Below are positions 2,600 through 26,164 of a stretch of 35,332 nucleotides of DNA, piece after piece. The stretch spans positions 107,084 through 142,415 of the forward strand of contig CAYMEV010000008.1 in the NCBI GenBank assembly GCA_964389675.1, in the 5' to 3' direction. The stretch is from an uncultured Candidatus Sumerlaeota bacterium. GTDB taxonomy: Bacteria; CAYMEV01. Positions within the stretch are counted from its first letter, which is position 1. Every line of letters begins with the position of its first letter. A program made the translations under genes and the position numbers. Below the pieces are notes generated by a model. It was not told where the DNA came from and ran no database searches. It worked only from the letters and a program-made list of their open reading frames with translations.

Positions 2600-2623
2600 C
2601 AAAATAAAAAAAAAGCCTATAAT
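2596..2623 (+). promoter_or_regulatory. Sigma70-type promoter (TTGACA-N16-TATAAT) overlapping the cas6 stop
   Basis: Perfect -35 hexamer at 2596-2601 and -10 hexamer at 2618-2623, with 16-nt spacing. Confidence 0.55.
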
Positions 2624-2692
2624 TAAAAATACCATCCAAAAAAACATGCAAGCCCATCCTCTGGGGCTGATTTTACCGGGTCTCCTCTACTC

Positions 2693-2726
2693 CCTCAAAA
2701 GCTGATATTATTTTCAGCTTTTGAGG
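2693..2726. terminator. 13-bp perfect inverted repeat (terminator, attenuator or operator) between cas6 and cmr1
   Basis: CCTCAAAAGCTGA-(8 nt)-TCAGCTTTTGAGG. There is no clear U-tract on the + strand, so its function is uncertain. Confidence 0.4.
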
Positions 2727-2747
2727 CTGACCCGGGAGAAAAAGTAT

Positions 2748-2776
2748 TTGAATTTTATTTAAAAAAATATTATAAT
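2748..2776 (+). promoter_or_regulatory. Sigma70-type promoter for the cmr operon (TTGAAT-N17-TATAAT)
   Basis: Hexamers at 2748-2753 and 2771-2776, about 80 nt upstream of cmr1. Confidence 0.5.
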
Positions 2777-2855
2777 GAGTAAATAATCCTAATAATTTTA
2801 TAGGGGTTATGTTTCATTAGCGAAACTACTAATAAATTTAGTATTGGAGAAATAT

Positions 2856-3857: not shown

Positions 3858-3873
3858 ACTAAGGAGTATAAAT

Positions 3874-7742: not shown

Positions 7743-8589
7743 AAAAAATGACTTATTGTTCTTTTATGCTCAGACCCCTGTACATTGTGGTAGTGGTTCA
7801 TCTCTCGAGGTCATAGATCTACCGATCCAGAGAGAGAAACATACAAATTATCCTATCTTCCAGGCTTCATCTATAAAAGGTACAATGCGCAGGTTCTATG
7901 ATGATGATAAAACAATCGAGCCAATTTTTGGGCCTGAATCAAATGCGGAATATGCATCATGCATTACTTTCACGGACGCCAGAATATTGCTATTTCCAGT
8001 GAAATCATTTAAGGATGTATTTGTTTGGATTACATGCCCCCACGTACTTAGGAGGCTTATAAATGACATGAAAAGTATTGGCCTTAGCTACAATACTGAG
8101 TTACCATCATCACTTGCTGATGATGAGGCTATAATAACAGGTGAAATAAAAAGAATATGCCACAATAACAAATTAATCCTGGATGAGTATGTGTTTAATC
8201 CAAAAAGCAGCCAACCTGTCGCAGAGATATTAGATTCTATTAGCCTTCCACACAAAGATGATGTGATGGATAAAACTGCAATCATATCGGATGATATGTT
8301 TAAGTACTTCGTAACAGCTGCAACAGATGTAGTAGCACGAACCTCAATAGACAAAGATACTGGAGTAGTAAAAGATGGACAGCTCTGGTATGAGGAATAT
8401 CTACCATCTGATTCTATACTCTACTCAATAGTCTTTGCTGAAAACTCAAGGAACGATAACAGTAGTAATCTTGATGGCGATACAGTACTGGTAAAAATCA
8501 AACAAAGCATTACAAAAATCATCCAAATAGGGGGAAATGAAACTATAGGCAAAGGCATAGTGCACCTATTCTGGAATAAGGAGGAATAA
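7732..8589 (+). CDS. cmr4: Type III-B RAMP backbone Cmr4
   Basis: TPVHCGSG, IDLPIQRE (conserved catalytic Asp position), SSIKG, DARILLFPV, LWYEEYLP and QIGGNETIGKG. Confidence 0.96.
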   Translation: MKNKKNDLLFFYAQTPVHCGSGSSLEVIDLPIQREKHTNYPIFQASSIKGTMRRFYDDDKTIEPIFGPESNAEYASCITFTDARILLFPVKSFKDVFVWITCPHVLRRLINDMKSIGLSYNTELPSSLADDEAIITGEIKRICHNNKLILDEYVFNPKSSQPVAEILDSISLPHKDDVMDKTAIISDDMFKYFVTAATDVVARTSIDKDTGVVKDGQLWYEEYLPSDSILYSIVFAENSRNDNSSNLDGDTVLVKIKQSITKIIQIGGNETIGKGIVHLFWNKEE

Positions 8590-8593
8590 CCCA

Positions 8594-8965
8594 ATGAATA
8601 AAACATTAGGACAGGAAAGAGCAAATTACGCTTTTAATTGCGTAAAAGATGCTAAAAAGGATTTCAACAGTGAAAAAAAATCAAAAGAATATAAAGTACT
8701 TGTAAAGGGTTTCCCCTCAATGATTGTCAACAATGGCCTCGGTCAGGCTTTGGCTTTCCTAAAAGCTAAAGGCAAAGATCATCATAGTGCTCTCTATAAA
8801 AATATTGATGATTGGTTTAAAAATCCAGCATCACCGATAACTATCAATAATACGGACATACTAAAGCATATCATTAATAGCACATCGTTAGACTACCGAT
8901 ATATTACTGAAGAGGCTCTGCTGTTAATAAACTGGTTTAAAAAATTTGTGGATGCAGAGATCTAA
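8594..8965 (+). CDS. cmr5: Type III-B small subunit Cmr5
   Basis: KTLGQERA..A, PSMIVNNGLGQALAFL and YRYITEEAL...WFKKF. Confidence 0.94.
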   Translation: MNKTLGQERANYAFNCVKDAKKDFNSEKKSKEYKVLVKGFPSMIVNNGLGQALAFLKAKGKDHHSALYKNIDDWFKNPASPITINNTDILKHIINSTSLDYRYITEEALLLINWFKKFVDAEI

Positions 8966-8989
8966 TAAAAAAACTAAGGAGCATGTAAT

Positions 8990-10156
8990 ATGCCAATACC
9001 AATAAATTCTAGCTTAAAGAATGCTATTGAAAATGTAAATAGATTTAAGGAATCATCGAATTTAAATCTTCTCTTTAACAAATACATTTATAACTGGGAT
9101 GAAAATCAAGGTTATCAGAGCAAAAACAAGCATATTTTTCTAAAAACTATTTCTGAAACTTTTAATAGCAAAAATGTTTCTATGAATAAGAGTTATGAGT
9201 TTTTTATTAAAAAATGGAAAGATACTATAAATAAAATGCATAACTCTGTTGCTTTAACTGCTAATAACTTGACAAGACTCACTGTAGGGCTGGGAAATGA
9301 AACAATCCTGGAGAATTCTATCACACTGAATAATACTTGGGGATTTCCTTATATTCCGGGTAGCGCTTTAAAAGGTGCAGTAAGAGCATACTATATAAAT
9401 AAAATATCAGAAGATATCACAGAACTAGCACCTAATGATATTGATGATCTTATCTCACTATCAGATAAGGATTTCGCAAATAAGAATGCCGAAATAAAGA
9501 CAAATAAAAGCATCCTGTCTGCACGCAGGATATTTGGAACAAAGGATAAGGAAGGTGCAATAATCTTCTTTGATGCGTACCCGACAAAGTTTCCACTTCT
9601 AAAAGTAGATATAATGAATCCTCACTTTCTAAGTTATTACAGCAATAAAGAAAATAATAATCCCCCACCTGGCGACTGGGAAAACCCCGTTCTAATTTAT
9701 TTTATTACTGTTAAAGAAAATCAGCAGTTTCTTTTTGCATATTCGACAAGACATAATTATAATTTAGATGAAGTTGACCTTGGCCAATTAAAAGAATATA
9801 TCAAAGCAACACTTATAGAACATGGTATAGGAGCTAAGACATCAGTAGGCTATGGTTTCTTTTCAAAAATAGCCTATATCGAAAAAGAAGCTCCAAAAGA
9901 TCCGCCTAAACCACAGAAAAAACTCTCAGAAATTGAACAATTAGCATTTGATATTGAGAATAAATACAATGATAGCGATATCGGTAATTTCTTTATTAAA
10001 CTTGATCAATATTCAGGGGATGACCTGAAGACAATAGCACAAGCACTCAAAAAGCATTTCATTAAAAATAAGAAGTGGGCAGGATCAAAGCTAAGCAGAA
10101 AGCAAAAAGAAAAAATAGCTAAAATTAATACTATATTAGGAGAAGATAATAACTAG
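8990..10156 (+). CDS. cmr6: Type III-B RAMP protein Cmr6
   Basis: RLTVGLG, GFPYIPGSALKG, FFDAYP, DIMNPH, PGDWENP and GIGAKTSVGYG. Confidence 0.95.
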   Translation: MPIPINSSLKNAIENVNRFKESSNLNLLFNKYIYNWDENQGYQSKNKHIFLKTISETFNSKNVSMNKSYEFFIKKWKDTINKMHNSVALTANNLTRLTVGLGNETILENSITLNNTWGFPYIPGSALKGAVRAYYINKISEDITELAPNDIDDLISLSDKDFANKNAEIKTNKSILSARRIFGTKDKEGAIIFFDAYPTKFPLLKVDIMNPHFLSYYSNKENNNPPPGDWENPVLIYFITVKENQQFLFAYSTRHNYNLDEVDLGQLKEYIKATLIEHGIGAKTSVGYGFFSKIAYIEKEAPKDPPKPQKKLSEIEQLAFDIENKYNDSDIGNFFIKLDQYSGDDLKTIAQALKKHFIKNKKWAGSKLSRKQKEKIAKINTILGEDNN

Positions 10157-10494
10157 CCAAAGAAATAATTTATAAATTTATTCTTGAAGTAAATTCTCGG
10201 TCTTTACAATTTTGTTTTATTACTGACCTATTTATAAATAATTTGTTTTCTGTTGCAATGTAATTATGATTTTTAAATAATATTAATAAGAAAACACATG
10301 ATTACAATAAGTTGATATTTTTATAATATATAGCTATATATCTTCTCATTGAAGTTTTGAAATTCCTAAAATCGAGAATAATAATTGTTTAGACTGATTT
10401 ATAAAAATTACCTTAGGAGGTAATTTAAAAAATGACATTATCTTTTAAAATTGATATAATACAGCCGAGATACAGAGACAAAAAAGACATGAGG
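10157..10494 (+). promoter_or_regulatory. CRISPR leader with putative array promoter
   Basis: AT-rich region with no long ORF next to the non-degenerate end of the array. It contains ATGACA(10432)-N17-TATAAT(10455) with an extended -10 TG, and a 9-bp inverted repeat at 10405-10426. Confidence 0.75.
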
Positions 10495-13400
10495 GGATAG
10501 ATAGGTACCTTGATGAATAAAGGATTGCGACAGAGAGCCGGGTCGCCCAGTGCACCCGGTTTATCTGCACAGGATAGATAGGTACCTTGATGAATAAAGG
10601 ATTGCGACTTTAAGTCCGGTTCTTTTTAGACAAAAAAAAAGAACCGGTCAGGATAGATAGGTACCTTGATGAATAAAGGATTGCGACGCCTCAAGATCCA
10701 GGCAGTCTATACTGCATTGACTAAAGGATAGATAGGTACCTTGATGAATAAAGGATTGCGACAAAAGTCACGGAGTCAACGATCTCCCGATGTAATTCTA
10801 GGATAGATAGGTACCTTGATGAATAAAGGATTGCGACTTTTTCCTTTTTTTAGTTTAATTAAAAATAATGTCTAAAATAGGATAGATAGGTACCTTGATG
10901 AATAAAGGATTGCGACTCTTAGACAAATGTGTTCGTAGTCGATGATTATCCGTTCTGCAAGGATAGATAGGTACCTTGATGAATAAAGGATTGCGACGCG
11001 ACTAAAGACTGACAGAGCTTATCAAGTCTTGATATTTATGGTAAGGATAGATAGGTACCTTGATGAATAAAGGATTGCGACTTTCGGTATATAATGGTTC
11101 CTTATATCAAGAAACCATTGGATAGATAGGTACCTTGATGAATAAAGGATTGCGACATAAAGCCCCCCCCTTTGTCATTCCTCCTCAAGAGATTCGGATA
11201 GATAGGTACCTTGATGAATAAAGGATTGCGACTTGCACCCAGAGAAGTTTACAATAATCTTATCTGCTGTCATGGATAGATAGGTACCTTGATGAATAAA
11301 GGATTGCGACTCTAAAGTCCGCAACATGCGGATAGCTGCGGACTTATTGAGGATAGATAGGTACCTTGATGAATAAAGGATTGCGACTTCATCAACCCTC
11401 GCTTTCTCAAATATTTCATTGAGGACATTATCCGGATAGATAGGTACCTTGATGAATAAAGGATTGCGACAATAGATAAATTCTCTTATACTGTTGTGTT
11501 TCAGGTTAAAAGGATAGATAGGTACCTTGATGAATAAAGGATTGCGACTATAATCAAGGTTCTTCCTAAATTGCTGAAGCCTGTATGCAAGCGGATAGAT
11601 AGGTACCTTGATGAATAAAGGATTGCGACGGATTCCGCTCTATGCGTGAGTTTTTCCATAATTATCGGATAGATAGGTACCTTGATGAATAAAGGATTGC
11701 GACTGAATTAATTTTTTTCATTTTCTTTACTCCTTTTCATTGGATAGATAGGTACCTTGATGAATAAAGGATTGCGACTTTTATCTTGTCATAGCTGACT
11801 TGGAATTCTTTCAGCGTGTTCGGATAGATAGGTACCTTGATGAATAAAGGATTGCGACTTTGTAAAACAAGGCGTCCATAGCCTCTGTTATTCCTACGGA
11901 TAGATAGGTACCTTGATGAATAAAGGATTGCGACTTAAAATCCCTGAACAATTTTAACTTTTTGTTGTAGATAGGAGAGGATAGATAGGTACCTTGATGA
12001 ATAAAGGATTGCGACTTTTAATAATACTAACATTACTTTTTCTCCTTTTGTTTTTTTGGATAGATAGGTACCTTGATGAATAAAGGATTGCGACCCTTAT
12101 TTATGTATGTGATTTTGTTTTTATTTATACTCATTATAGGATAGATAGGTACCTTGATGAATAAAGGATTGCGACGAAAATCTTTCCAAATTTTCCTTAT
12201 TTATGTATGTGATTTGGATAGATAGGTACCTTGATGAATAAAGGATTGCGACTTGCCTTAAGCTTGCATACAAGCTTAAGGTATCTGAGCCATGGATAGA
12301 TAGGTACCTTGATGAATAAAGGATTGCGACATATAAAGGATTATCAATGAAGATAAAATTTTTATAATAACTTCGGATAGATAGGTACCTTGATGAATAA
12401 AGGATTGCGACCTATCTTCCAGGACGGCATATTTCCGTTTGCCCTTTTCCTCAGGGATAGATAGGTACCTTGATGAATAAAGGATTGCGACCTCTTCTTC
12501 AAGATCTCTAACGGTTTTGATTATCTTCTGGATAGATAGGTACCTTGATGAATAAAGGATTGCGACAGGTTTTTAATAGAAACTAATTCTGAACCCAATA
12601 TAATGGATAGATAGGTACCTTGATGAATAAAGGATTGCGACATGTAATAAGTTGAATATATCTCAGGATAGTGTTAATGATAGGATAGATAGGTACCTTG
12701 ATGAATAAAGGATTGCGACTTTTGTTTTTAATTCTTCCATTTCTTTTCTCCTTTTGGGATAGATAGGTACCTTGATGAATAAAGGATTGCGACTATTTAT
12801 GTATTTAATAAAGCTCATTTCCTATCTCCAATGGATAGATAGGTACCTTGATGAATAAAGGATTGCGACCAGTCCTGCTCTGAGTGTCCATGCTGGTAGA
12901 TTTAATTGGATAGATAGGTACCTTGATGAATAAAGGATTGCGACTTGAAACGCTCTGAAATTGCCTTGATTTCAGCAATCCTTTTCTGGATAGATAGGTA
13001 CCTTGATGAATAAAGGATTGCGACTTAAACCTATCAATAGAAAGAATTTTACCTAAACCTCGGATAGATAGGTACCTTGATGAATAAAGGATTGCGACTA
13101 AAGTCGTGCTTAAAGGCAACGACGTAGTAATATTTTTTATTCGGATAGATAGGTACCTTGATGAATAAAGGATTGCGACTTTTCTATAAAAATCTTTGAG
13201 GCTCATTTGGGCAGGTTCGCCGGGATAGATAGGTACCTTGATGAATAAAGGATTGCGACTGATTTGCTCCTTGTTCAATTCATGGTTGGTAATAGGATAG
13301 ATAGGTACCTTGATGAATAAAGGATTGCGACTTTTCCTCAGCTCAATTAATGGATCATTTACATGAGCTGGATAGATAGGTACCTTGATGAATAAAGGAT

Positions 13401-14036
13401 TGCGACGGATACAATCCTAAAGTTAGCCCTCCGATACTGTAAAAATTTGGATAGATAGGTACCTTGATGAATAAAGGATTGCGACTCGTCTCTGAGTAAA
13501 TCAATTATTTGTTTATATATCTTATAACAGGATAGATAGGTACCTTGATGAATAAAGGATTGCGACTGGATAGTAATGCCTTTATGGCTTTTTCAAGCCT
13601 TCTTGTTCGGATAGATAGGTACCTTGATGAATAAAGGATTGCGACTTCTTTCATACGCATCCTCCGTTCTAATAATTTATTATTAAGGATAGATAGGTAC
13701 CTTGATGAATAAAGGATTGCGACTCTGTAGCGAGCTTGACGAGTTTTACTAAGTGCCTATTTTCTTGGATAGATAGGTACCTTGATGAATAAAGGATTGC
13801 GACTATACGCTATCTCCCTCACTATTTCCTCTAATCTATTATACAGGATAGATAGGTACCTTGATGAATAAAGGATTGCGACTTATCCACCTCTGTTTTT
13901 ATGAATATTTTTGTGAAACTATCAAAGATAGATAGGTACCTTGATGAATAAAGGATTGCGACTTTTAATATCTTTCTTTATAGTCTTTGATTTCTTTTTC
14001 GATAGATAGGTACCTTGATGAATAAAGGATTGAGAC
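10495..14036 (+). CRISPR. CRISPR array with 46 repeats of 37 bp (GGATAGATAGGTACCTTGATGAATAAAGGATTGCGAC) and 45 spacers of about 35-47 nt
   Basis: Counted by eye. The last two repeats are degenerate (first base changed; terminal repeat ends GATTGAGAC), which marks the trailer on the right. A CCTT/AAGG stem is followed by an 8-nt ATTGCGAC 5'-tag, and spacers are T-rich on the + strand, as expected if antisense to mRNA. Confidence 0.99.
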
Positions 14037-14366: not shown

Positions 14367-15788
14367 TTAATCAGATTCCCCTAAGGATAATTCTATATTC
14401 TCAACCTCTGCAAAGAACTGAATAAGCTCATCAACAAATCTCTTAAATCCCTTATAATTATTTTCTGTAACAAAGGAAAAACCGTGAGCAAGGACACTAA
14501 AATTACGGTTCTTTAAATGGCTCTGCATCCTTTTTAATGAGAGAGATATTCTTTTTGACAGGCTCAGATCGTCATTAATTGCCTGTAAAATGATATAGCC
14601 TGATATCAGGCTTATCTCTGAAGGGAGAATGGAAACAGACTGCAGGCCTGCAGATTTTCTTATCCTGTTAATCTCTGTAAGAAGATCATTATTATTTAGT
14701 TTTATTTTGCTGTAATCAGGCTTTGCTGTATCAATATCGTACAGGGCAAATCTTCTCTGTTCAAGTATCTCAATGAGTCTGTACAGATAAAGGGAGGCAG
14801 CATCCAGCCTGCCTAAAGCTGCTCTCTTCATAGCATTTTTATATATTATCTGAATAAGCTCTTTCACAGCTTTTTTGTCCTTTAGAAGTTCCAGAGAACT
14901 GTCCCCTGGATTCTTTGGAATAAGGGAAGAGAGATGCAGAAGATCTTCGGTCTTTTTATCCCATTTTTCGCGTAATTTGCCGTAATATTGCCGCTCCAGT
15001 AAATTGGCTTCTTTTATGAGCCCAGCGCTTTCAGATATATTCAGCAGATCTAATTGGTGCAGGGCTTCGGCATGTTTGTATTTTATCATGTATTTCAGAG
15101 GTTCGCGACATTTCTCGCTGAGTTCTCTGTATATTTCTGAAGCACCTCTGTAGTCATAATGCTGAAGCAGGATGTCTGCATTTTTTTCCCTGAGTGTCCC
15201 AAAAACCGCATAGGGGTTATCTATAAATTCCAGATATTCAGAACCAGGCCTAGGTCGCCTTAATTCTTTGAGATAATCTCTATTTCCTATATAAATAAGC
15301 TGAAAATTAAGAAGTGCACCAACCATTGCCAGACCACTGGTCATAGTTTTTTTGCCTGCAGTAATATCTACTGCTATCTTTTTTATACCGCGGTCCTGCC
15401 AGGCATTATAGATGTTTTGAACATTTTTATATATTGAAATGGGGAATGGTTCTACTATCATCTCTTTTTCATAGCTTGATGGCTTTATCTGAGTAAAACT
15501 AATAACCTTATCAAGAGATTGCTCTGATTCTTCGGTACACAGGAAGAGTATCCTTTTTGGTTTAATTGTACTCAAAGACATAATGACAGGCTCCGGGGAT
15601 GTACCGACAGTCATTATAAGACCATCAAAATTTATCTCCTCCAGCTTTTTTTCTTCTTTTATAACAAAATTTCTAAATACTATAGGGAATATCTTTTCCT
15701 CGTAAAACCTATCAAGCTGTTCTTTTGCAGACCCTGTGGCCTTTGCAATCTCTAACCATTGGTTAGTAAGTTTTTTCAATTCATCCAT
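14367..15788 (-). CDS. CARF-HEPN ancillary ribonuclease (TIGR02710 / Csx1-Csm6-like)
   Basis: CARF motifs TVGTSPEP and VDITAGKKTM; C-terminal HEPN motif RNFSVLAHG; YRLIE. Confidence 0.85.
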   Translation of the reverse strand: MDELKKLTNQWLEIAKATGSAKEQLDRFYEEKIFPIVFRNFVIKEEKKLEEINFDGLIMTVGTSPEPVIMSLSTIKPKRILFLCTEESEQSLDKVISFTQIKPSSYEKEMIVEPFPISIYKNVQNIYNAWQDRGIKKIAVDITAGKKTMTSGLAMVGALLNFQLIYIGNRDYLKELRRPRPGSEYLEFIDNPYAVFGTLREKNADILLQHYDYRGASEIYRELSEKCREPLKYMIKYKHAEALHQLDLLNISESAGLIKEANLLERQYYGKLREKWDKKTEDLLHLSSLIPKNPGDSSLELLKDKKAVKELIQIIYKNAMKRAALGRLDAASLYLYRLIEILEQRRFALYDIDTAKPDYSKIKLNNNDLLTEINRIRKSAGLQSVSILPSEISLISGYIILQAINDDLSLSKRISLSLKRMQSHLKNRNFSVLAHGFSFVTENNYKGFKRFVDELIQFFAEVENIELSLGESD

Positions 15789-15794
15789 GGATAT

Positions 15795-17051
15795 CTACTC
15801 CTTCCTTATATTTATTGCCCTATAAGATTCCCTCTGTTTTTTTTTATCAAATGATGGGGTAATGTCAAATATTACTTTTTGCTCGCGGGATATACCTTCA
15901 GGGAGATCCTTTGTAAAACAGAAATAGGATTCGCTGCCCGATTTAATAAAACAGAAAGGTTTTTCAGGGGATATTGAGATAACTTTCCCCTTTAGGTCTT
16001 TTTTTTCATTGCCGGCTGAGGGCTTTCCCTTCAGCCATTCTTTTTTGCATGCTTTCAGGAGTTCATCAATTGTGAATTCTTTTTTCGGGGTTTGAAAGAA
16101 GCTTGATAATTCCTGCAGAGATGCGGACAGCGATTCAGGCATGTTCCAGCCCTTTTCCTCTCTGACCAGCTTTGAAAGCATAAAATGAAAGAAACTCATT
16201 TCATATTGCTCTAAGTCCTTATAGACTCTGCCAAGGTTCTGCATAAGAACCACTTTCATGTCAAGCTTGGGCATTAGACTTGAAGATAAAAGCAGCATGG
16301 GAAGTGCTTTTTCAGGGCAGCCGGTCTCTGCAATAATCTGGCCATATTCATTCAGAATCCACCAATCGGGATGCGGCGTATTGCAGAGAGCTTCATAAAT
16401 CTTAAGTGCCTGTTCGGTGTTTTTAAGGTTATAGAAGGCTTTAGCTTTCAAGCGGAGAAAAAACTTCTTTTGTCTGGGGAATTTATCTATGATTGTCTCT
16501 ATAAGCTCTATGGCTTTGTTATCATCATTGCTGTTAATTAATGATTCTGCATTATAATAATACCACATTGCCCTGTCGCTCCAGTCAGATTTTGTATTTG
16601 TGCTGTTGGGTTTATTATCAAGATCAGCCGGGTTAATAAGGTCTATGTTCTCCTTGATAAAATCAAAACGCTTTGATTTTTTGGCTTCTTTGAATAACTT
16701 AAGCAGAGAGACCTTGAGTGCTGTAATATCAGGCTTTAATGCCTTTATCTTTTCAAAGGCTGTATCTTTGGAATTAAAATCTGCAGAAACATCCATTAGT
16801 ATTCCCTGTATATAGCTCCATATCATCTCGTTCCTGCACCATGCAATATCCTGCAGTTCTGGCGGAATTGCATCAGCTATGCTTATTGCTTCGGCAAATT
16901 TTCTCTGTTTTCTAAGGCAATGCAAGTATCCTGCAGCATCATAGCCATCTTTTGTATCAGATGACTCATAAAGCTCTTTGTATATTGCTTCTGCCTGTTC
17001 ATACTTCTGGTTCTTTCTCAGGTTATTGGCCATTTGCTTTTTAGTATCCAT
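15795..17051 (-). CDS. TPR-repeat protein with a C-terminal cold-shock/OB-fold nucleic-acid-binding domain; function unknown
   Basis: Helical TPR-like repeats throughout. The C-terminus LKGKVISISPEKPFCFIKSGSESYFCF...KVIFDI...YRAINIR resembles a CSD/S1 fold. Confidence 0.7.
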   Translation of the reverse strand: MDTKKQMANNLRKNQKYEQAEAIYKELYESSDTKDGYDAAGYLHCLRKQRKFAEAISIADAIPPELQDIAWCRNEMIWSYIQGILMDVSADFNSKDTAFEKIKALKPDITALKVSLLKLFKEAKKSKRFDFIKENIDLINPADLDNKPNSTNTKSDWSDRAMWYYYNAESLINSNDDNKAIELIETIIDKFPRQKKFFLRLKAKAFYNLKNTEQALKIYEALCNTPHPDWWILNEYGQIIAETGCPEKALPMLLLSSSLMPKLDMKVVLMQNLGRVYKDLEQYEMSFFHFMLSKLVREEKGWNMPESLSASLQELSSFFQTPKKEFTIDELLKACKKEWLKGKPSAGNEKKDLKGKVISISPEKPFCFIKSGSESYFCFTKDLPEGISREQKVIFDITPSFDKKKQRESYRAINIRKE

Positions 17052-17062
17052 AATTCTTTACC

Positions 17063-17356
17063 TCATACTATAATTAAATCATCAAATTCTGTTTTTGTGC
17101 TGAGCCCTGATACCTGTATTGCCGCCTGGCACCTGGAGCAGAGCGAATAATACCTTATGCTGTCCTCTTCAAAATCTATTACCTTCTCAAGTTTGTAACG
17201 CATCTTTATGTACTGATTATAGGTTATGCGGCAGTCGAATACGCTTTTCTGGACCCTTACTCCATAGCTCTTCATTATCTTGGCTACCTTTGCCCTTTTC
17301 CTGTCATCTATTATGTCGTAGCAGACAACTATATACAGAATATTATTCATAGACAT
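17063..17356 (-). CDS. cas2: CRISPR adaptation protein Cas2
   Basis: VVCYDIIDDRKRAKVAK...YGVRVQKSVFDC...DSIRYYSLC. Confidence 0.97.
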   Translation of the reverse strand: MSMNNILYIVVCYDIIDDRKRAKVAKIMKSYGVRVQKSVFDCRITYNQYIKMRYKLEKVIDFEEDSIRYYSLCSRCQAAIQVSGLSTKTEFDDLIIV

Positions 17357-18392
17357 AAGGCTGATAATCAGCCTCTCCCCTCAGGCATTTTACAAAAAGC
17401 CTTATCTGTCTTCTAATAATGTCCCTGTAAGACATGTTCTTCTCCTCCCTGGAATAGTACTCCTCCTTTAAAAGATAGCTCTTGAGCGATACTATAAATG
17501 TCTTTATACCTTCATGGGTCAATCTGACAGGCATGTCTTCCTTGTTATATTCAGTCTCTTCATCGGGGTCAAAATCATCAAGGTCCTCTTTTGAAATAAA
17601 AAAATGCGAAAGCCTTATTCTTTTCTGATTAATCAGCTTTATTACAAGCCTGTCAATAATTAGAGGCCTGAACTCCTCCATCAGGTCAAGGACCAATGAA
17701 GGCCTGCCGTATTTCATGGAATGCAGAGATCCCAGATAGGGATCGAGCCCTGTTATATTTATAGCCTGCTGTACCTCATTGGCCAGTAGAGCATAACCAA
17801 AACTAAGCAGTGCATTGAAAGGATCCTTGGGAGGTCTCCTTGTCCTTTTTTCTATATGGAACTCAGGGGGTTTTATAAGTTTATTGAAAACAGAGAAATA
17901 TACCCTCGCGGCATCCCCCTCATATCCCATGAGGGTATCCAGGTCCTCTGCAATGTTCAGTTTAGGCAGTCTGAATTTTAGGCTTCTTATAACCTCGGTT
18001 ATCTTAATATCCCGTATTACATAATTATGCTTGCGCAGGACTACCATCTCATTTTTAATCTTTGCTTCTATTATTGCTCTTGACTGAACCAGTTTGAACG
18101 AGTCATCTGAGAGCCTGGAGAACTGCAGTTTTCTGAGTTCGATATTTTTACCCCACTGGGTCAGAAGCCTTCCCCTGTATCTGCCGTATACAGTTAGGAA
18201 TACAGTGTCTATTCCCTTCTCCAGGAGAAAAGCTATGCAGGAGGTAGTAATGTTTACATTGCCGAATATTACCACCTGTTCAATATTAAAGTGATGCACC
18301 CATTGTATTGCCTCACCATTCTTCTTTACATAAAGCCTGTTCTGGCTCTTGTGAAGTGAAGCGCCCTGATCTGTCACATACATTACAGACAT
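17343..18392 (-). CDS. cas1: CRISPR integrase Cas1 (no RT fusion)
   Basis: LMGYEGDAARVYF, RTRRPPKDPFNALLSFGY, GLDPYLGSLH and LVLDLMEEFRP. Confidence 0.98.
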   Translation of the reverse strand: MSVMYVTDQGASLHKSQNRLYVKKNGEAIQWVHHFNIEQVVIFGNVNITTSCIAFLLEKGIDTVFLTVYGRYRGRLLTQWGKNIELRKLQFSRLSDDSFKLVQSRAIIEAKIKNEMVVLRKHNYVIRDIKITEVIRSLKFRLPKLNIAEDLDTLMGYEGDAARVYFSVFNKLIKPPEFHIEKRTRRPPKDPFNALLSFGYALLANEVQQAINITGLDPYLGSLHSMKYGRPSLVLDLMEEFRPLIIDRLVIKLINQKRIRLSHFFISKEDLDDFDPDEETEYNKEDMPVRLTHEGIKTFIVSLKSYLLKEEYYSREEKNMSYRDIIRRQIRLFVKCLRGEADYQPYVYE

Positions 18393-18394
18393 AG

Positions 18395-20278
18395 CTACAG
18401 TACCAGGAGAAACCTAGTTTTTCCATCAGCATCCTTTATTCTCTGAAGTTTTGCAAAGGATGCCGAGAGCTCCTCTATATCCTGGCTGTCAAAGTAGTCG
18501 TTAAATATATCCTCCAGCCTCTGCATTCTTTTATCAAGGACAGAAAGGTCCTTTTTTGTCTGCATATAGTCCTTGATAGCCTTTTCCAGCTGAAGCTGGC
18601 TTACAATACCGGACTGAGGCTGTCCGCTTATATGCATCAGCGGAGTAGGATATATAGCAGAGTTTGAATCATAGGCGCATGAACAGTTGACTTTGCTTGT
18701 GATATCCGGTATTTTTTTTCGGATCTTCGGACAGCTCATTGGATTTCCGGAGAATTTTGACTGCATGAGATATGAATCGTTGCAATTAATGCATGAGTGC
18801 AGGATGTAATTTACAATATTTGCTCCGTTTTTCAGGTGACCCAGGGTGTGCCTTATTACGAGCTGTTCTTCATTATTAAGCTCTCTGTAAGTAAGGGCAT
18901 TATTGTAGAGCTTCTCTATGACAGAGCATTTAGATAATATTGATTGAAACTCAATGTCAGAGTCAGGGTCAAAAACCTCAGCCGGCTGTGAAGGCATCTC
19001 AGTTTCTTTGCCTTCCTTGTGGGTATCTACTTCCCACGGAACATCATCCTCATTATCATGCGAATATGACTCAGCATAGGGACTGTTGCTTGCTATGGCA
19101 GCTTGAAGCATATCAATGTCTGCTCTTTTTATTCTGGTTAAGAACAATAGCTGATCATCATAATAGCTGTCATTGGAGGGGTCCATGAACAGGCATCTCT
19201 TCCCCGTCCTTCTGTGGATCCCCAGAGGTATTTTAATAAGGTTTCCGTAGTTTTTAGCTTTTACATAGCTCTGTTTGGGAAAAATCTCGATACCGAAAGC
19301 CTCATCTATACTAATTGATGATATCACTGCTTTGCAAAATTCCCTTGCAATCTTTGCTGGTACCGGGGAAGCAAGGAATATCCATACATGATAGCCCTTA
19401 TACCCGCTATCCTCAAGGTAGCATGGTATTTCAGAGGATGACAGCCTGTCAACTATGCCTTTTGCTACCTTAAGCCCCCTCTTCTGATATTGTTTTAATT
19501 TATCTTCATCAGAGATAATATTCTTCAAGAATACTTTTTTTATATCTATATCAAACGCTATAAATCTGACTGTATTATCCATCCTTAGCTGGTATATGCC
19601 AACAGTGTGATTTCCAAGAATATGGTTTTTTGCAACTATATGGGTAAACGGCTGAGATTCCTTTGAATACCCTGATTCACCAGTGGGACTTACCCACTGT
19701 TTTGCGTATACACCCTCTCTTCCGCTGAAGAGTTCAGCAAATGCTATTAAATAACTGTCATCAAGCCTCTCAAGGTGAAGATGATCTTTATCAACTGAAT
19801 TTTCAACGATCTCCTTCCCAGCAACAAGTTGAGCACCAACTATCAGACTGTCGTAGCTCTTTTTATTGAACTGTTCTTTTGCTTTTTTATATATCCTGCT
19901 TGCTTCCTCATACATATTATTATCCTTAAGGAGGCTTCCATAAAGCAGGTAGACCTTTTCCTGGTTTGGATCACGCTCTATGATAGCTTTATAATTCTTT
20001 ATCGCCTTTTTGACATTGCCGAAATCACTGTGCAATTCAGCAAGCTTATAATGAATATCGACAGGATCATCAGAACTGGAAAGAGCAAGGTTGAGCTCAG
20101 TTACCTGCTCCTTATAAAGACCTGCCTGGTCTAGCAGATCTGCAAGAGCTATGTGAAAATCCCTGTCCCTTATGCTTTTTGTGTCATACCTGCTGTAGAT
20201 CTCTGCTATAATTTCGATATTTTCTTCATCAAGGGCTTTCTGCACCTCTTCAATAAGAACACCGGTATTCTTATCCAT
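18395..20278 (-). CDS. CRISPR-associated primase-polymerase (CAPP; TPR + AEP Prim-Pol + Cys-rich PriCT-like domain)
   Basis: N-terminal TPRs; AEP motifs FDIDI, SGYKGYHVWIF, EIFPKQ and GNLIKIPLG; C-terminal Cys cluster (KC...MSCPKIR...CSC); located directly upstream of cas1. The start is placed at 20278 (MDKN) after a GGAGG RBS, whereas the track starts at 20305. Confidence 0.88.
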   Translation of the reverse strand: MDKNTGVLIEEVQKALDEENIEIIAEIYSRYDTKSIRDRDFHIALADLLDQAGLYKEQVTELNLALSSSDDPVDIHYKLAELHSDFGNVKKAIKNYKAIIERDPNQEKVYLLYGSLLKDNNMYEEASRIYKKAKEQFNKKSYDSLIVGAQLVAGKEIVENSVDKDHLHLERLDDSYLIAFAELFSGREGVYAKQWVSPTGESGYSKESQPFTHIVAKNHILGNHTVGIYQLRMDNTVRFIAFDIDIKKVFLKNIISDEDKLKQYQKRGLKVAKGIVDRLSSSEIPCYLEDSGYKGYHVWIFLASPVPAKIAREFCKAVISSISIDEAFGIEIFPKQSYVKAKNYGNLIKIPLGIHRRTGKRCLFMDPSNDSYYDDQLLFLTRIKRADIDMLQAAIASNSPYAESYSHDNEDDVPWEVDTHKEGKETEMPSQPAEVFDPDSDIEFQSILSKCSVIEKLYNNALTYRELNNEEQLVIRHTLGHLKNGANIVNYILHSCINCNDSYLMQSKFSGNPMSCPKIRKKIPDITSKVNCSCAYDSNSAIYPTPLMHISGQPQSGIVSQLQLEKAIKDYMQTKKDLSVLDKRMQRLEDIFNDYFDSQDIEELSASFAKLQRIKDADGKTRFLLVL

Positions 20279-20433
20279 TAAGATACCCCTCCTCCAATAA
20301 GACATCTTTGTACTAATAAATTATAATACCTTATATGCTGATAATCAAGTCAAAATATAAAATTTTCCTGAATTTTATTCCATAAAATCCGATTGATCAT
20401 ATAATGAAGAAAGTAATATAAAGGGAGGCTGAA

Positions 20434-20811
20434 TTGCCGGATATATCTCTACTATTCACACATGTTTTAACCGGTTCCCAGACCGGGGACACAGAAAAGA
20501 AATTAAATCCAGGCAGCTTCTATTATATGCCAAAAGAACTTATTGCAAGATTCAACACCATATATCCTAATATATCCTCTCTTAGCAGATATTTTAAACC
20601 ATTTAAGTATTTGATTAATATTGTCAGGAAAGTGGATTATTTGCTGATTAACGGGATTTATGGTTCTGTATATCTGATGGTGGATCTCTGTTTTTCCAGG
20701 GGCATTATACTGATTTGCAGCACATTGAAGCGGGTATCAAAAAAGTATGTAAAAATATCAGATGCCGAAATAAAGGAAATCTTCACACACATCATATTAA
20801 GGAGGCATTAA
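20434..20811 (+). CDS. csx20: Csx20-like CRISPR-associated protein (candidate cyclic oligoadenylate ring nuclease), divergent
   Basis: GGGAGG RBS and TTG start. The pattern LLFTHVLT..Q..D, P.EL...F..I.P, DYLLINGIYG.VYLMV, ST.KR.S and FTH..LR matches my recollection of the Csx20 consensus. Confidence 0.7.
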   Translation: MPDISLLFTHVLTGSQTGDTEKKLNPGSFYYMPKELIARFNTIYPNISSLSRYFKPFKYLINIVRKVDYLLINGIYGSVYLMVDLCFSRGIILICSTLKRVSKKYVKISDAEIKEIFTHIILRRH

Positions 20812-20812
20812 A

Positions 20813-21901
20813 ATGGGACAGATACTAGTAACCCTCCTGGGTGAGCAGACTATCCCCAATATACTCTTTATAAAGGAGATGCAGTCCCACAAGAAAATAG
20901 ACAGGTATATTTTCATATCCACGGAACAGATGAAAAAGAGGAACATTCTGCCCAGGATCATGGAATCAGCTCATCTTGAATCCAATGAATGCAGTGAAAT
21001 ACTTGTGAATGAATATTCTCTGTTTGATTTTAAGAAAAAATTGGATGAATGCCAGTTCGCAGATGAAGACAAATTCATTGTAAATATAACTGGCGGAACA
21101 AAGCTCATGGCAATAGGGGCTTATAATTATTTCAGCCATAAGGATTCAGAGATATTTTATGTCCAGATAAAGGGCAACACATACAGGAAAATCCATCCTG
21201 AAGTGAAAAAGAGAGAAAGTGACCTGGAGTACAGGATAAAGCTGAAAGACTACCTGTCTGCTTATGGCATCTCTATAAGGAAATACCAGGATAAGCCTAT
21301 ACTCTCCATAAAGAAAGCTGAACATATACTGCATAAAATGATAAACAAAGACTATAGCCAGATACTGCATTTCCTTAGAACAAAAAGAGAAAGCAGATCT
21401 GTACCCATAGATAGAGACCTGAGAGAATTTCTTGGTGAACTGGGCTTCGATAACCTGCATCAGGACATTGAAAAAGAATACACAAGGCTTCTTACCGGGG
21501 GATGGTTCGAAGAATATGTTTACTTGCTTCTGAAAGAAAAACTCATTCTTAATGAGGATGAAATAATGCTCTCAGTCGATCTTAAGATCAATAATGAAAT
21601 AGATGTACTGTTTGTGAGAAACAATTCAATATACCTGGTAGAATGCAAAACAGGACTCAAGGATGGCAAACGAAGCCTACTCAGTGACACAATATATAAG
21701 ATAAACTCAATATCAAAACAGTTCGGCCTGCGTGTAAGATCAATAATATTTACCATTGATCCCCTAATAAGGGATAAAAAAGGCAATATAAAATGTGATT
21801 ATAAGAAAAAAATGGAGATATTCAGTACAGATATAATAGACAGAGATATACTGCTTGATGAACAGAAACTTAATTATGAACTGAAAAGGATAATAAAATG
21901 A
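20813..21901 (+). CDS. card1: Card1/Can2-type CARF + PD-(D/E)xK nuclease (DUF1887 family)
   Basis: LLGEQTIPNIL and VNITGGTKLMAIGAY (CARF); GGWFEEYVY and NEIDV...VECKTG (restriction-endonuclease fold). Confidence 0.85.
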   Translation: MGQILVTLLGEQTIPNILFIKEMQSHKKIDRYIFISTEQMKKRNILPRIMESAHLESNECSEILVNEYSLFDFKKKLDECQFADEDKFIVNITGGTKLMAIGAYNYFSHKDSEIFYVQIKGNTYRKIHPEVKKRESDLEYRIKLKDYLSAYGISIRKYQDKPILSIKKAEHILHKMINKDYSQILHFLRTKRESRSVPIDRDLREFLGELGFDNLHQDIEKEYTRLLTGGWFEEYVYLLLKEKLILNEDEIMLSVDLKINNEIDVLFVRNNSIYLVECKTGLKDGKRSLLSDTIYKINSISKQFGLRVRSIIFTIDPLIRDKKGNIKCDYKKKMEIFSTDIIDRDILLDEQKLNYELKRIIK

Positions 21902-22686
21902 AAGAATTCCACATTGTATCAGTAGGAAACAGCCTTATTAAAAATTTCATTGATAATGACTCCAGCCCGACAACATCAATGGGAAACGGGATATGGAATA
22001 ATCTGATAAACGACAGTTCCTTTCTTGATAGAATGCAGAAATTTCTTGAAAAGGCTCCAATGCAATATTCTGCAGAAATAAACTCCCTTCTCCATTACTG
22101 CAAAAAAAAAGGAATAAAACCAATAGACATAGAGGTCTTCCCTGTTGCAACGACTACACCTTCAAATGAGATAGCTCTTTCAGCAATATGCAAATACTTT
22201 CATTCCATAGGCATATCTGTTTATAATCCCAGCCAGTTCTCTGGATATTTCGGGTGCCGGTCAGCTGAGGCATGTGAAAATTTCACAAAGGGAATGATAG
22301 AGATGCTTGATAAAATGGTCTATATAGTATCCTGCAAGAAAAAGGAAGGATACCATGTTTGCCTTAATGCAACGGGAGGTTTCAAGGCATATGTCATTAC
22401 ACTCGCACTTGTCGGCTTTATGACCCAATCGGAAGTCTACTATATGCATGAGGAATTCGATGATGTAATAGTATTCCCTTCTCTTTTCCACATACCTGAA
22501 AGCAGGGAAATGGAGCTTATACAAATTCTAAGCGCCAATGAACCTGATCACAACTATCTATTTAATAATTTCCCTGCTGAGATAAGCCTCTTATGTAAAT
22601 ACCACATATTAAAAATTTCAGAATATGATGGTGAGTCAAAAATAGAACTGACAAATATAGGCAAGTTTATTGCCAGAAACAGCTAG
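21898..22686 (+). CDS. APE2256-family CARF protein with short C-terminal wHTH-like region
   Basis: IVSVGNSL, SAEINSL, LNATGGFKA and YYMHEEF; the C-terminus ends in a wing-like ELTNIGK. Confidence 0.8.
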   Translation: MKEFHIVSVGNSLIKNFIDNDSSPTTSMGNGIWNNLINDSSFLDRMQKFLEKAPMQYSAEINSLLHYCKKKGIKPIDIEVFPVATTTPSNEIALSAICKYFHSIGISVYNPSQFSGYFGCRSAEACENFTKGMIEMLDKMVYIVSCKKKEGYHVCLNATGGFKAYVITLALVGFMTQSEVYYMHEEFDDVIVFPSLFHIPESREMELIQILSANEPDHNYLFNNFPAEISLLCKYHILKISEYDGESKIELTNIGKFIARNS

Positions 22687-24800
22687 AATGAACATTTTAA
22701 TATATCAATTATATCTGCTTCTGCTTTAAGAATAAGCTTCTTCTTCCCCTCCATAGGAAGGAATGCATTCCTGAAGCCATTTCTTATGATTGCGAGACAT
22801 TGCCATAAAGACAGACCGCCGGGGCTCATCCTGGCTGCCTTAATATATTCATTCGGCATATCAGTCCTGGATATGCCGGGGTTATCCGTATTTATTGTAA
22901 CCTGAACACCAGCCTTAAGAAGATCAGCAAGAGGATAGGCTCCAAGCTGATATGAATCCGGGTACCAGGAATCCTTGAATCCGATTACCTGATAATTGCT
23001 TGATGGACAAAGTTCAAGTGCTATCCTCTGGTTTATTACCTTGTTAAGAAGCTCCTTTTTTTCCAGCAGGGATAGGCCATGTCCTATCCTTTCTGCATTT
23101 AGGTAGTATATAGCTTCCCAGATATTTTCTGAACCTTTGTCCTCGCCTGCATGAATGGTAGTATGAATACATCTTCTATGAAGGCCCAGAAAAGCATACT
23201 GCAATTCAGCAGGCTGCCTGGCGCTTTCAGAACCGGCAAGGTCAAAACCGACAAAATTCCTGCAGAATTTTCCATTGGATAGAAGTTCATTATACAGTTC
23301 TATATGTCTGTAAATAAAGCTCATCTTTCCGTGTCTGCTTGCAATAAAAAGAAGCTTCACAATTACATCTTCCCTGTCGCAAAGCTCATCTAGCATTATT
23401 TCAACTACCTGCTTCCCGGTCAGCCCTCCTTTTGTATAGTTCTCAGGCGAGCATCTCACCTCAATATATTTTATATTGCACCTTCTGCAATGCTCTATTA
23501 GGTTTCTGCAGGCAAGCCTTATCATCTCTTCATTCTGAAAGAGCCCTGAACCTTGTATATCTCCAAACTTCTCATATTCTCTAATACCTATTCCACGGAA
23601 TAAATTATCATCTCTGCATTTTCCATATATAATCTCTTCAAGCATTTCCTCATTGTCCTTAAAACATGATAAAAATCCGGCCATAGCATAAGGGGGTTTT
23701 ATACCATCAAATCGTGAATTTATGGACTTTATATCGCTATTAATTAAATCCTTAATCATTTTGACATCCCGCCTTGATATCCCCTTCTCTATCTCTAAGA
23801 GCCATAGATCAAACCCTTTGACTTGTCCTCTTATGACTTTTACTTCATTTCTTAGTGTATCTGCATTCGATACTGCCCCTGCTACTGAAAGCACTCCTCC
23901 AAAATGACAATGCAGGTCTGTTTTTGGCAAGTTTGCAAAAAGCTGTCTGTCTCTAAGTTCATTTTCTCTATTCCCGATAATACAATCCTTAAGTTTTTCA
24001 AGAAAACTCGGCGGATATAGATAAAATTCATGAAAATTGCTGTATTTTTCAGGTGCCCTATGCTTATCCCTGTAATTCTTCTGCAGATTAAATGATTTCT
24101 TCTGCATCTGTTCTATCTCGTCGGCCAATTCTGTTGAATTAGCAGTAATGTTTACAGCATCAGAGGAAATTTTATATTTCCTCTTAAGGTTTTTCAGTTC
24201 CATCTCAATAATGGGTGAGATTTCTATCCTTCCTGATATGACAATAGGGTTTATAAGCTCTGCATACTCCTTTTTTAAAGGCCTTGCCATAATATCAGGA
24301 GTCATCCTTCTCAGATCGGCTGAAAGCTCACTGTAAACATCTACAACATGAAGAATGGCGGAGCACCCAAACAGAAAGCCTGCCTGCTGTATATCAGCAC
24401 TCATGGTCTTTCTTCCCCCTGCAAGGCTGATAAATACATTATCTTTCTCTGATGTAGCATTAAGTACCAGCTTGTATATCATATCCCTCATTACCTGGCA
24501 TTCCCTTGAGCTGTTTAGCTCACTGACCCCTGAGGTCTTCCAGATCTTTATCTTGAAATATTCTTTGAAATGCTCATGCCACTTATAAAGTTGCCCAAGG
24601 GCCTTCTCAATCTGGGCACTTTCAGTGGTAGCAAGCCATACCTCATCAATATCATTTATTTCATATTTTGTCCTTTCCTTCATTATCTTTTCATAATCAC
24701 TTCGATTATTGTATATATATATGCGGTCAGGATTGGTAAAGCCAAGCATCTCAGGTATTATCTGCCATGATGTGCCGAATGTGGATATAAGTATATTCAA
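22683..24800 (-). CDS. cad1: CARF-adenosine deaminase effector (Cad1/CAAD type)
   Basis: N-terminal NE0113-type CARF (STFGTSWQIIPE, SLAGGRKTMSA); deaminase motifs DLHCHFGG, GFDLAG.E, TIHAGE, RIGHG, ELCPSSN and NTDNP. Confidence 0.9.
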   Translation of the reverse strand: MNILISTFGTSWQIIPEMLGFTNPDRIYIYNNRSDYEKIMKERTKYEINDIDEVWLATTESAQIEKALGQLYKWHEHFKEYFKIKIWKTSGVSELNSSRECQVMRDMIYKLVLNATSEKDNVFISLAGGRKTMSADIQQAGFLFGCSAILHVVDVYSELSADLRRMTPDIMARPLKKEYAELINPIVISGRIEISPIIEMELKNLKRKYKISSDAVNITANSTELADEIEQMQKKSFNLQKNYRDKHRAPEKYSNFHEFYLYPPSFLEKLKDCIIGNRENELRDRQLFANLPKTDLHCHFGGVLSVAGAVSNADTLRNEVKVIRGQVKGFDLWLLEIEKGISRRDVKMIKDLINSDIKSINSRFDGIKPPYAMAGFLSCFKDNEEMLEEIIYGKCRDDNLFRGIGIREYEKFGDIQGSGLFQNEEMIRLACRNLIEHCRRCNIKYIEVRCSPENYTKGGLTGKQVVEIMLDELCDREDVIVKLLFIASRHGKMSFIYRHIELYNELLSNGKFCRNFVGFDLAGSESARQPAELQYAFLGLHRRCIHTTIHAGEDKGSENIWEAIYYLNAERIGHGLSLLEKKELLNKVINQRIALELCPSSNYQVIGFKDSWYPDSYQLGAYPLADLLKAGVQVTINTDNPGISRTDMPNEYIKAARMSPGGLSLWQCLAIIRNGFRNAFLPMEGKKKLILKAEADIIDILKCSF

Positions 24801-25446: not shown

Positions 25447-25462
25447 ATTACCCTCCTTGATA

Positions 25463-26164
25463 TTAAAACATTAAGACCAGCTCATTATATTGTTTTAGTG
25501 CTTTTCTCCCTTTTTCAGTAATATCATAGATGCCCCTGCTCTTTCTAATAAACCATCCATATACATTATCATACAGTATTCTCTGTGTTTTTGCCTCATC
25601 AGAGCCTTTTTCCCTCAGTGCTTTTATTGATAAAGGCCCGTACTGATCCAGAAGCCAGGCAATATAGACTGCCTTTTGCCTGTATGCTGTAAGCAGTCTC
25701 CTTTTTACAGAACCTCCCTTATTAAGATCAGCTTTCCTTTCATCTGCCTCTTTAATTATCCTTTTTCTCTTTTTCTGCGAGAGCGATGCACTTCTGCTTC
25801 TGTCAAACGGCACTGCATCAATGATTATCTCGGCATATCCTCCTTTTCTGGCAAAGTTTACAAATATGAGTCCGATCTCAAGCCTCCGCAGTAAATGAAA
25901 GAGGTCTCTCCATCTTGAAGTATAGTAGCTGCCGGGCCTCAAGATCGCACAATATACCCTATCTGCTATCCTCTGCCTTTTTACAGCCTGCAGGATCAGC
26001 TGCAGATTCAATGTAAGCTTTAATTCCGCCACAATGAGAGAATCTTTATCCATGGCTGTAAGGTCACACCCCATTACCTCTGAATTGACCTTAAAGCCCT
26101 GATCCTGAAAAAGCTTCTTAACCGGCATATAAAGGTCAGTTTCTTTTATTGTATCCTTTTTCAA
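25463..26164 (-). CDS. DUF2161 family putative PD-(D/E)xK-type protein
   Basis: KETDLY.PVK..F...GF.V..EV..CD, ELK..LNL.LILQA..RQ, TAYRQ.A and NVYGWF.R..RGIY. Confidence 0.85.
   Translation of the reverse strand: MKKDTIKETDLYMPVKKLFQDQGFKVNSEVMGCDLTAMDKDSLIVAELKLTLNLQLILQAVKRQRIADRVYCAILRPGSYYTSRWRDLFHLLRRLEIGLIFVNFARKGGYAEIIIDAVPFDRSRSASLSQKKRKRIIKEADERKADLNKGGSVKRRLLTAYRQKAVYIAWLLDQYGPLSIKALREKGSDEAKTQRILYDNVYGWFIRKSRGIYDITEKGRKALKQYNELVLMF

Follow-up and report, generated by a model that had tools for sequence, protein, structure and literature searches.

CRISPR-associated primase-polymerases (CAPPs) are encoded with cas1 and cas2 in published adaptation modules, and their biochemistry has been characterised for MpCAPP and DbCAPP (Zabrady et al. 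2021, PMC8211822). MpCAPP primes and extends on single-stranded DNA, displaces strands and binds Cas1, and it uses RNA templates poorly, for priming and extension alike (PMC8211822). Modules in which a reverse transcriptase (RT) is joined to Cas1 or to an AEP domain (RT-Cas1; RT-AEP, or 'CAPP-RT') likewise attach a polymerase to Cas1-Cas2 in type III loci, and Shah et al. 2019 (PMC6546367) tabulate a 'PrimPol, adaptation polymerase' and an unspecified 'TPR protein'. TOTE (TPR, OB, TBP, Effector) conflict systems, named in 2022, have the TPR-OB family as their core and frequently contain RNase H domains (PMC12458937). The subject of this report is a five-gene operon in a 35,332-nt stretch of DNA from an uncultured Candidatus Sumerlaeota bacterium, the whole of which is called the window below. 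The operon encodes a CAPP, Cas1, Cas2, a tetratricopeptide repeat protein with a cold-shock domain (TPR-CSD) and a Csm6/Csx1-type CARF-HEPN RNase (Csm6). With a probability of about 0.6 it is a type III-B adaptation module composed of Cas1-Cas2, a type A1 CAPP and a TOTE-derived TPR-CSD, with Csm6 co-transcribed at the 3' end; the best reading of the TPR-CSD, to judge from genes and domains, is as a recurrent accessory of adaptation that depends on a primase-polymerase (PrimPol).

The window resembles the published modules in that a TPR-AEP polymerase of the NF040561 family immediately precedes cas1-cas2 and the locus is of type III-B. The difference lies after cas2, where the window has the TPR-CSD gene followed by csm6 and M. 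piezophila has Argonaute (PMC8211822). Unlike the RT-Cas1 and RT-AEP modules, the window carries no RT domain. Its likeness to TOTE is twofold: the 418-aa TPR-CSD is a full-length TPR-OB member, and the CAPP, in the place of the effector, has domains that bear the Pfam names AEP-TOTE and Mu_Gam-TOTE. However, no TBP domain was detected in the operon and its effector is a primase-polymerase wired to Cas1-Cas2, whereas TOTE effectors elsewhere are RNase H, HEPN, helicase or NERD enzymes. PADLOC holds a profile for such proteins, PDLC01170 ('TPR repeats containing protein fused to cold shock-like domain (OB-fold)'), which matches the window protein over its full length at 85.6 bits but is a far better fit to a Bacteroidota homologue (locus L049) at 215.8 bits and to a RecD-TBP-linked protein at 339 bits; the window TPR-CSD belongs to another branch of the family.

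A sequence-only reading of this stretch had seen in the five genes a possible undescribed adaptation machine. Its tie between the TPR-CSD and CAPP-cas1-cas2 stands, but 'undescribed' was too strong, as CAPP-Cas1-Cas2 modules are in the literature (PMC8211822), TPR-OB proteins form the core of TOTE and a PADLOC profile exists; the membership of Csm6 did not survive either, as set out below. The literature search, which extended neither to bioRxiv supplements nor to the 2022 TOTE review, found no paper describing a TPR-CSD as a CAPP partner, and the term 'cold shock' is absent from the text and four supplementary files of PMC8211822, as far as these were available. What is new here is the separate capture of an RNase HIII-branch TPR-CSD by a type A1 CAPP module.

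The polymerase and the TPR-CSD protein

Domain and profile matches identify the product of the first gene as a type A1 CAPP (CAPP_A, TPR type). An N-terminal TPR region (residues about 80-155) precedes the AEP catalytic domain at 188-400; then come a Cys-rich region and, at the C-terminus, a Mu Gam-like domain at 574-631. Pfam matches are to PF22548 (AEP-TOTE, 158.7 bits), PF22709 (Mu_Gam-TOTE, 34.8 bits) and TPR families. NCBIfam NF040561, 'CRISPR-associated primase-polymerase type A1', matches at 356.2 bits against a cut-off of 200, and PADLOC PDLC01101, 'adaptation polymerase', at 311 bits. The features that go with NF040561 membership are also present: an N-terminal TPR, matched by TPR families at 83-154, and a cas1 start 2 nt past the CAPP stop codon. 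An alignment of 15 CAPPs shows D252, D254 and H306 as well as C460, C525, C543 and H558 to be invariant; we take D252/D254 and H306 to be the AEP catalytic acidic pair and histidine. Identity to the CAPPs of loci L120, L124 and L093 is 30-34%, and to those of the f224 clade discussed below only 20-23%. Aligned to each other with hhalign, the TPR regions of CAPP and TPR-CSD showed no specific relation (probability 4.9%).

The description of the fourth gene product as TPR plus cold-shock fold, first made from the letters, has been borne out by a structure model and by a profile of its C-terminus. In the AF2 model (23 homologues; pLDDT 90.7) residues 1-342 form a helical solenoid and residues 353-417 a barrel of five strands. 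A profile built from 17 homologues over the C-terminal 73 residues and run against PDB sequences matches CspB (2i5m_X, E 6.8e-6) and about 20 cold-shock sequences at E ~1e-3 or better; Pfam gave no match to this C-terminal piece alone. The whole protein matches Pfam TPR repeats and, weakly, DUF7017, and Foldseek with the whole model returned generic TPR/PPR proteins only. As a side observation, the C-terminal profile also matches PDB 9arw_H, 'CSD domain-containing protein Cmr6' (E 0.0043), which indicates that one type III-B subunit likewise carries a fused cold-shock domain.

Full-length relatives of 410-440 aa number 171 by word-indexed search and 554 cluster representatives at E<=1e-3 by exhaustive search, the closest being P0004 (71% identity) and P0005 (48%); the window protein itself is P0001. 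A scan of the genome collection with this protein as single query found no relative, whereas an alignment query did succeed. The window TPR-CSD is no orphan but a member of the TPR-OB family, the core of TOTE conflict systems.

Occurrence beside PrimPol-cas1-cas2 modules

In the family as a whole the TPR-CSD is not tied to cas genes (one of 46 loci), and in particular branches it clearly is. The sequence-only reading had made its case hang on homologues of the fourth gene keeping company with CAPP and cas1, and they do: 22 of 28 loci of one family, two of three genomes in an unselected sample, and separate branches of the tree.

The first of these branches was met in an alignment scan with one genome per species, which gave 53 loci from very diverse bacteria and archaea. 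At one of them, L049 in Bacteroidota, the row runs cas1, a PrimPol of the BT4734/VirE-N type (class-B CAPP type), cas2 and TPR-CSD. When the CAPP, Cas1, Cas2 and Csm6 of the window were compared with all 53 loci by tblastn, the sole match was to Cas1 in L049. In that locus a 154-aa open reading frame (ORF) situated between the cas1 and PrimPol genes contains six tandem copies of a 63-nt unit (L049:4712-5072).

The second and third come from an unselected sample of 401 diverse genomes. The TPR-CSD profile matches only three of these, and in two of the three, the window's own genome included, the gene lies within a CAPP-cas module. Of the sample's genomes, 36 have the AEP-TOTE domain. Its strongest PF22548 members are AEP-helicase fusions, in whose flanks a profile search found no cas gene or TPR-CSD (TPR-CSD at 0 of the 4 loci checked with Pfam); ten further AEP loci adjoin cas1. 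Seven CAPP-cas loci could be assessed, the window among them, and the TPR-CSD is present in two: the window and L136. RT-(TPR)-AEP fusions stand beside cas1-cas2 in three loci of this kind (L123:8183-11176; L126:5676-8318 and 8404-10851; L130:7334-10390), and in the operon of L126 a separate CAPP of 815 aa accompanies an RT-AEP fusion.

L136 represents the f224 clade. Proteins of its type occur in 26 of the 87 genomes searched from the phylum of genome G677, all 26 in one family (26 of its 51 genomes) and spanning 10 of the phylum's 39 genera. In the 28 loci examined (27 fetched plus L136, with one weak partial match left out) a CAPP shares the locus in 22, and at least one of CAPP, cas1 and cas2 is present in 23; because these genomes are related, belonging to one family, the 22 of 28 shows retention and not 22 independent events. 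The remaining loci comprise L179 with cas2 only, L183 alone within 15 kb, and four at a contig edge or too short to judge. Most often the genes run TPR-CSD, CAPP, cas1, cas2. A candidate rule that Cas2 is the conserved neighbour was dropped, the CAPP being the commonest immediate neighbour in this clade. L136 ends in a CRISPR array, and type III genes are present in two of the five f224 loci scanned for them: cas10 and a RAMP gene in L187, and cas6 in L177.

Trees of 39-49 family members (IQ-TREE 'quick' searches; root unknown) contain three groups with starred branches between them: one of the helicase/NERD-TBP kind, to which L049 belongs, the f224 clade with its cas link, and an RNase HIII/RnlA group. 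The window clade (P0001, P0004, P0005) nests within the last of these, with branch support of 99-100 SH-aLRT. An approximately unbiased (AU) test rejects one clade for all cas-linked rows (log-likelihood difference 112, p 2e-64) and one clade for the window clade and f224 together (54, p 0.00066), with the tested clades named after the trees had been seen, the tree searches 'quick' and some branches long. The polymerases differ among the cas-linked branches as well, the AEP of L049 being of a different class from the CAPPs of the window and f224. On these trees, the link between the TPR-CSD and adaptation arose in at least two, and probably three, separate branches. Nothing argues more strongly for a functional link than this repeated capture by PrimPol-cas1-cas2 modules.

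Could the place beside cas2 nevertheless be functionally meaningless, the TPR-CSD being a stand-alone TOTE remnant or sensor that landed in a defence island? Defence genes cluster and are shuffled, the family is mobile across bacteria and archaea, and 40 relatives from the lineage of the window's own genome yielded no other homologue, all of which fits such an origin. However, three separate branches reached PrimPol-cas1-cas2 modules, and the operon spacing is tight. A related locus has moreover kept the arrangement: L054, a metagenome contig and the one short locus that the metagenome scan yielded, has the C-terminus of a CAPP, cas1, cas2 and the start of the TPR-CSD gene in the same order as the window, with proteins 86-89% identical (Cas2 89%). 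An accidental placement is accordingly judged improbable.

Several points weigh against the TPR-CSD as a recurrent accessory of PrimPol-dependent adaptation, beyond the relatedness of the f224 genomes and the limits of the AU tests already given. It is not obligatory, being absent from five of the seven assessable CAPP-cas loci (L120, L123, L126, L130, L134), and the published M. piezophila operon has Ago in its position (PMC8211822). In a genome of the same genus, G001, neither a TPR-CSD nor a Csm6 was found, and the contig with its CAPP-cas1-cas2 ends inside cas2. The TBP domain PF22721 was detected in none of the five operon proteins at E<=0.01 (Pfam at the sequence level, with a fold model for the TPR-CSD only), so the analogy with TOTE is incomplete. 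Finally, most family members are unrelated to cas: at the 46 of the 53 scan loci where neighbours were examined with Pfam, 31 have an RNase HII-family and/or RnlA-type HEPN neighbour, nine are Methanoculleus loci with uncharacterised neighbours, five have other or uninformative neighbours, and L049 alone has cas genes.

These other neighbours describe the background from which the cas-linked branches come. The commonest operon form has three genes: RnlA-like, RNase H and TPR-CSD. The one RNase HII-family neighbour scanned against NCBIfam is an RNase HIII (TIGR00716, 205 bits, cut-off 161), and in P0125 (754 aa) an RNase HII-family domain is naturally fused to a TPR-CSD, which gives a Rosetta-stone link between two TOTE components. 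In a Bacteroidota sample the PADLOC profile matches 9 of 401 genomes, and the neighbours besides L049 are RecD-like helicases or NERD nucleases that carry the Pfam 'TBP-TOTE' domain; the same kind is found in genome G616. The operon of DbCAPP, a class-B enzyme, includes a RecD-like helicase that binds DbCas1 (PMC8211822), and by analogy with the RecD-like TBP-TOTE helicases that are the usual partners of Bacteroidota TPR-CSDs, it may be a candidate TOTE component. In six of the nine Methanoculleus loci (L030, L034, L035, L039, L042-L045, L048) the TPR-CSD follows an uncharacterised gene of ~240-260 aa, and a divergent CARF3-wHTH (HFX_2341_N) gene adjoins it, again in six of the nine, an arrangement that is possibly a TOTE-like unit regulated by cyclic oligoadenylate (cOA).

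Operon layout, Csm6 and the surrounding locus

The five minus-strand ORFs of the operon are present with the spacing first reported for them: from their coordinates, a 2-nt gap between CAPP and cas1, a 14-nt overlap of cas1 and cas2, an 11-nt gap between cas2 and the TPR-CSD gene and a 6-nt gap between this and csm6. Only the CAPP gene needed correction, as the position 20278 formerly given for its end is the second in-frame ATG and the ORF extends further (Table 1). A consensus scan of the four short intergenic junctions found no terminator-like sites, and a sigma-70-like promoter lies upstream of the CAPP gene; we infer that the five genes lie on a single transcript. A run that belongs to another study (X2) yielded contigs that agree in every letter and span three junction regions: csm6/TPR-CSD (15617-15866), TPR-CSD/cas2/cas1 (17009-17385) and cas1/CAPP (18071-18546). 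Because of this bridging and because L054 keeps the same order, the arrangement is real and not an assembly artefact.

Table 1. Features of the operon and of the locus around it (coordinates within the window)
Feature	Position	Strand	Length and matches
CAPP	18395..20305	-	636 aa
cas1	17343..18392	-	349 aa; Pfam PF01867 309 bits; TIGR00287 285.8 bits
cas2	17063..17356	-	97 aa; Pfam PF09827 82.5 bits; TIGR01573 62.4 bits
TPR-CSD protein (P0001)	15795..17051	-	418 aa; TOTE 'TPR-OB' family
Csm6/Csx1-type CARF-HEPN RNase	14367..15788	-	473 aa
Sigma-70-like promoter, upstream of CAPP	20320..20348	-	TTGATT-17-TATAAT; consensus match only
Type III-B interference genes cas6, cmr1, cas10/cmr2, cmr3, cmr4, cmr5, cmr6	1646..10156	+	Pfam; cas6 at 1646-2599, cmr1 to cmr6 and cas10 at 2844-10156
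AT-rich leader side of array	10157..10494		
CRISPR array	10495..14036	+	46 repeats of 37 nt, 45 spacers
csx20	20434..20811		
Card1	20813..21901		
Csx1-like APE2256 protein	21898..22686		
CARF-adenosine deaminase	22683..24800	-	
DUF2161 PD-(D/E)XK protein	25463..26164	-	

Degeneracy of the last two repeats (1 and 2 mismatches) shows that the CRISPR array is read on the plus strand, and the five-gene row converges on its trailer end. Both integrase genes score above curated cut-offs, they adjoin each other and the array lies alongside; the array is served by the adaptation module of the operon.

The fifth protein is an ordinary RNase of its kind. Its HEPN domain matches Pfam PF09670 at 94 bits with an intact motif RNFSVLAH (R428-x6-H435), and the protein matches the CARF family TIGR02710 at 140.5 bits (cut-off 83.9) and PADLOC CARF1--CARF_HEPN at 393 bits; its Pfam CARF_Card1 match stays below the cut-off (21.6 against 24.6). 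Family membership and the Cas10 palm domain encoded in the locus suggest that it would be activated by cOA. Its inclusion as a conserved member of an adaptation machine, as originally proposed, had to be given up: a homologue was found in none of the 28 f224-clade loci, which puts Csm6 outside the conserved module. Other CAPP loci (L120, L126) do carry Csm6 genes, at varying places. Across the divergent promoter, a cOA-signalling cluster (20434-26164; Table 1) encodes Csx20, Card1, a Csx1-like protein, a CARF-adenosine deaminase and a DUF2161 nuclease-fold protein. Csm6 is best read as a co-transcribed cOA effector on the interference side, like Card1, the Csx1-like protein and the CARF-deaminase, and not as a participant in spacer capture.

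The proximity of csm6 to the TPR-CSD gene allows another reading, in which these two proteins form a TOTE-like RNA-targeting pair: the cold-shock domain would capture RNA, the HEPN domain would cut it, and CARF would replace TBP as the switch. The TPR-CSD would then have kept an ancestral partnership with a HEPN RNase and serve interference or abortive infection, not adaptation. The window clade does nest among members partnered by an RnlA-type HEPN RNase, only 6 nt part the two genes, and Methanoculleus homologues adjoin a CARF3-wHTH gene. Set against this, the cas-linked f224 loci have no Csm6 homologue (0/28), the immediate neighbours in L054, L049 and L136 are cas2 or the CAPP, and the window Csm6 does not stand apart from other TIGR02710 members. 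On balance such a pair is unlikely.

Further features of the locus stand apart from these questions. The space that separates the csm6 stop codon from the array trailer holds a short plus-strand open frame with a hydrophobic start (14116-14274). Two ORFs within the CRISPR locus, 243-1646 (plus strand; 467 aa) and 24892-25446 (minus strand; 184 aa), have no Pfam or PADLOC match, and 26413-30546 encodes a 1377-aa protein with a nucleotide cyclase, an AAA_16 ATPase and many TPR repeats, a STAND-like architecture.

A candidate for template supply

The CAPP has been proposed as the prespacer polymerase, and we know of nothing that brings it a template. Cold-shock domains bind single strands, RNA included, and TPR solenoids are docking platforms. 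The TPR-CSD probably delivers single-stranded nucleic acid to the CAPP. Gene order, domain identities and phylogenetically separate co-occurrence are what is observed; the binding steps, the substrate and the order of events that they suggest would be the following. The cold-shock domain of the TPR-CSD would bind single-stranded nucleic acid of an invader, and its TPR solenoid would dock on the CAPP, on Cas1-Cas2 or on both. The CAPP would then prime and fill in the strand, giving duplex prespacers, possibly with the DNA ends held by the Mu Gam-like domain at its C-terminus. Finally, Cas1-Cas2 would integrate these duplexes at the array's leader end, near 10.5 kb. A tblastn search of the window's own genome with two RnlA-like and two RNase HIII-like queries gave nothing at E<=1e-3, and this lack of a detectable canonical TOTE partner fits a partner within the operon.

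The 45 spacers of the array span 10532-13999. On the plus, transcribed strand they contain 40% T and 14% G, and 34 of the 45 reverse complements have more A than T. A Shine-Dalgarno sequence 4-10 nt upstream of an ATG occurs in seven of the 45 reverse complements, against two of 45 in the other orientation; shuffled controls average 1.46, and none of 2000 shuffles reaches seven. The strand bias is explained by selection for functional type III spacers, and the excess of start sites is not obviously so. Searches for protospacers in the own genome gave only chance matches of 17-18 nt for all 45 spacers, and one spacer compared with viral contigs gave no exact match.

Spacers that are antisense to mRNA-like sequence bear on the proposal of the sequence-only reading, in which all five proteins work as a single machine and the capture of RNA-derived spacers, without an RT, is coupled to cOA signalling or to RNA cleavage. 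The A-over-T bias and the start-site count fit it, and from what is known of the fold, a cold-shock domain could bind the RNA. The RNase H-type and TBP-type domains that are TOTE partners have also been linked in the literature to RNA-DNA hybrids (PMC3710099). However, selection for functional type III spacers would give the same strand bias, Csm6 is not conserved with the module, and MpCAPP neither primes nor extends well on RNA (PMC8211822). In lineages that have an RT, it is fused to this very AEP (L123, L126, L130), which suggests that the AEP alone does not supply reverse transcription. A single machine of this kind is very doubtful.

A related idea leaves Csm6 aside and concerns the source of the DNA. 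The TPR-CSD might make PrimPol adaptation sensitive to transcription, recognising single strands exposed at RNA-DNA hybrids or nascent transcripts of an invader and handing the displaced DNA strand to the CAPP. The idea is in keeping with the kind of substrate that its RNase HIII, RnlA and TBP partners point to in other loci, and is offered as a tentative and unlikely extension of the accessory role. If it were true, spacers would come preferentially from transcribed 5' regions, in an orientation suited to type III and without an RT. It would explain the excess of antisense Shine-Dalgarno and ATG spacers in the window array, and also why separate TPR-CSD branches were captured: the window, L187 and L177, whose neighbours were checked, are type III loci.

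The value of the finding lies in the recurrent, convergent association of the TPR-CSD with PrimPol-cas1-cas2 modules, one cas-linked branch of which has been kept in half of the genomes of one bacterial family. It also connects CRISPR adaptation with the TOTE conflict systems, which have barely been studied, and the four-gene set of CAPP, Cas1, Cas2 and TPR-CSD is compact and suited to reconstitution. The TPR-CSD is thus a concrete, testable candidate for the template-supply step in type III adaptation that operates without an RT.

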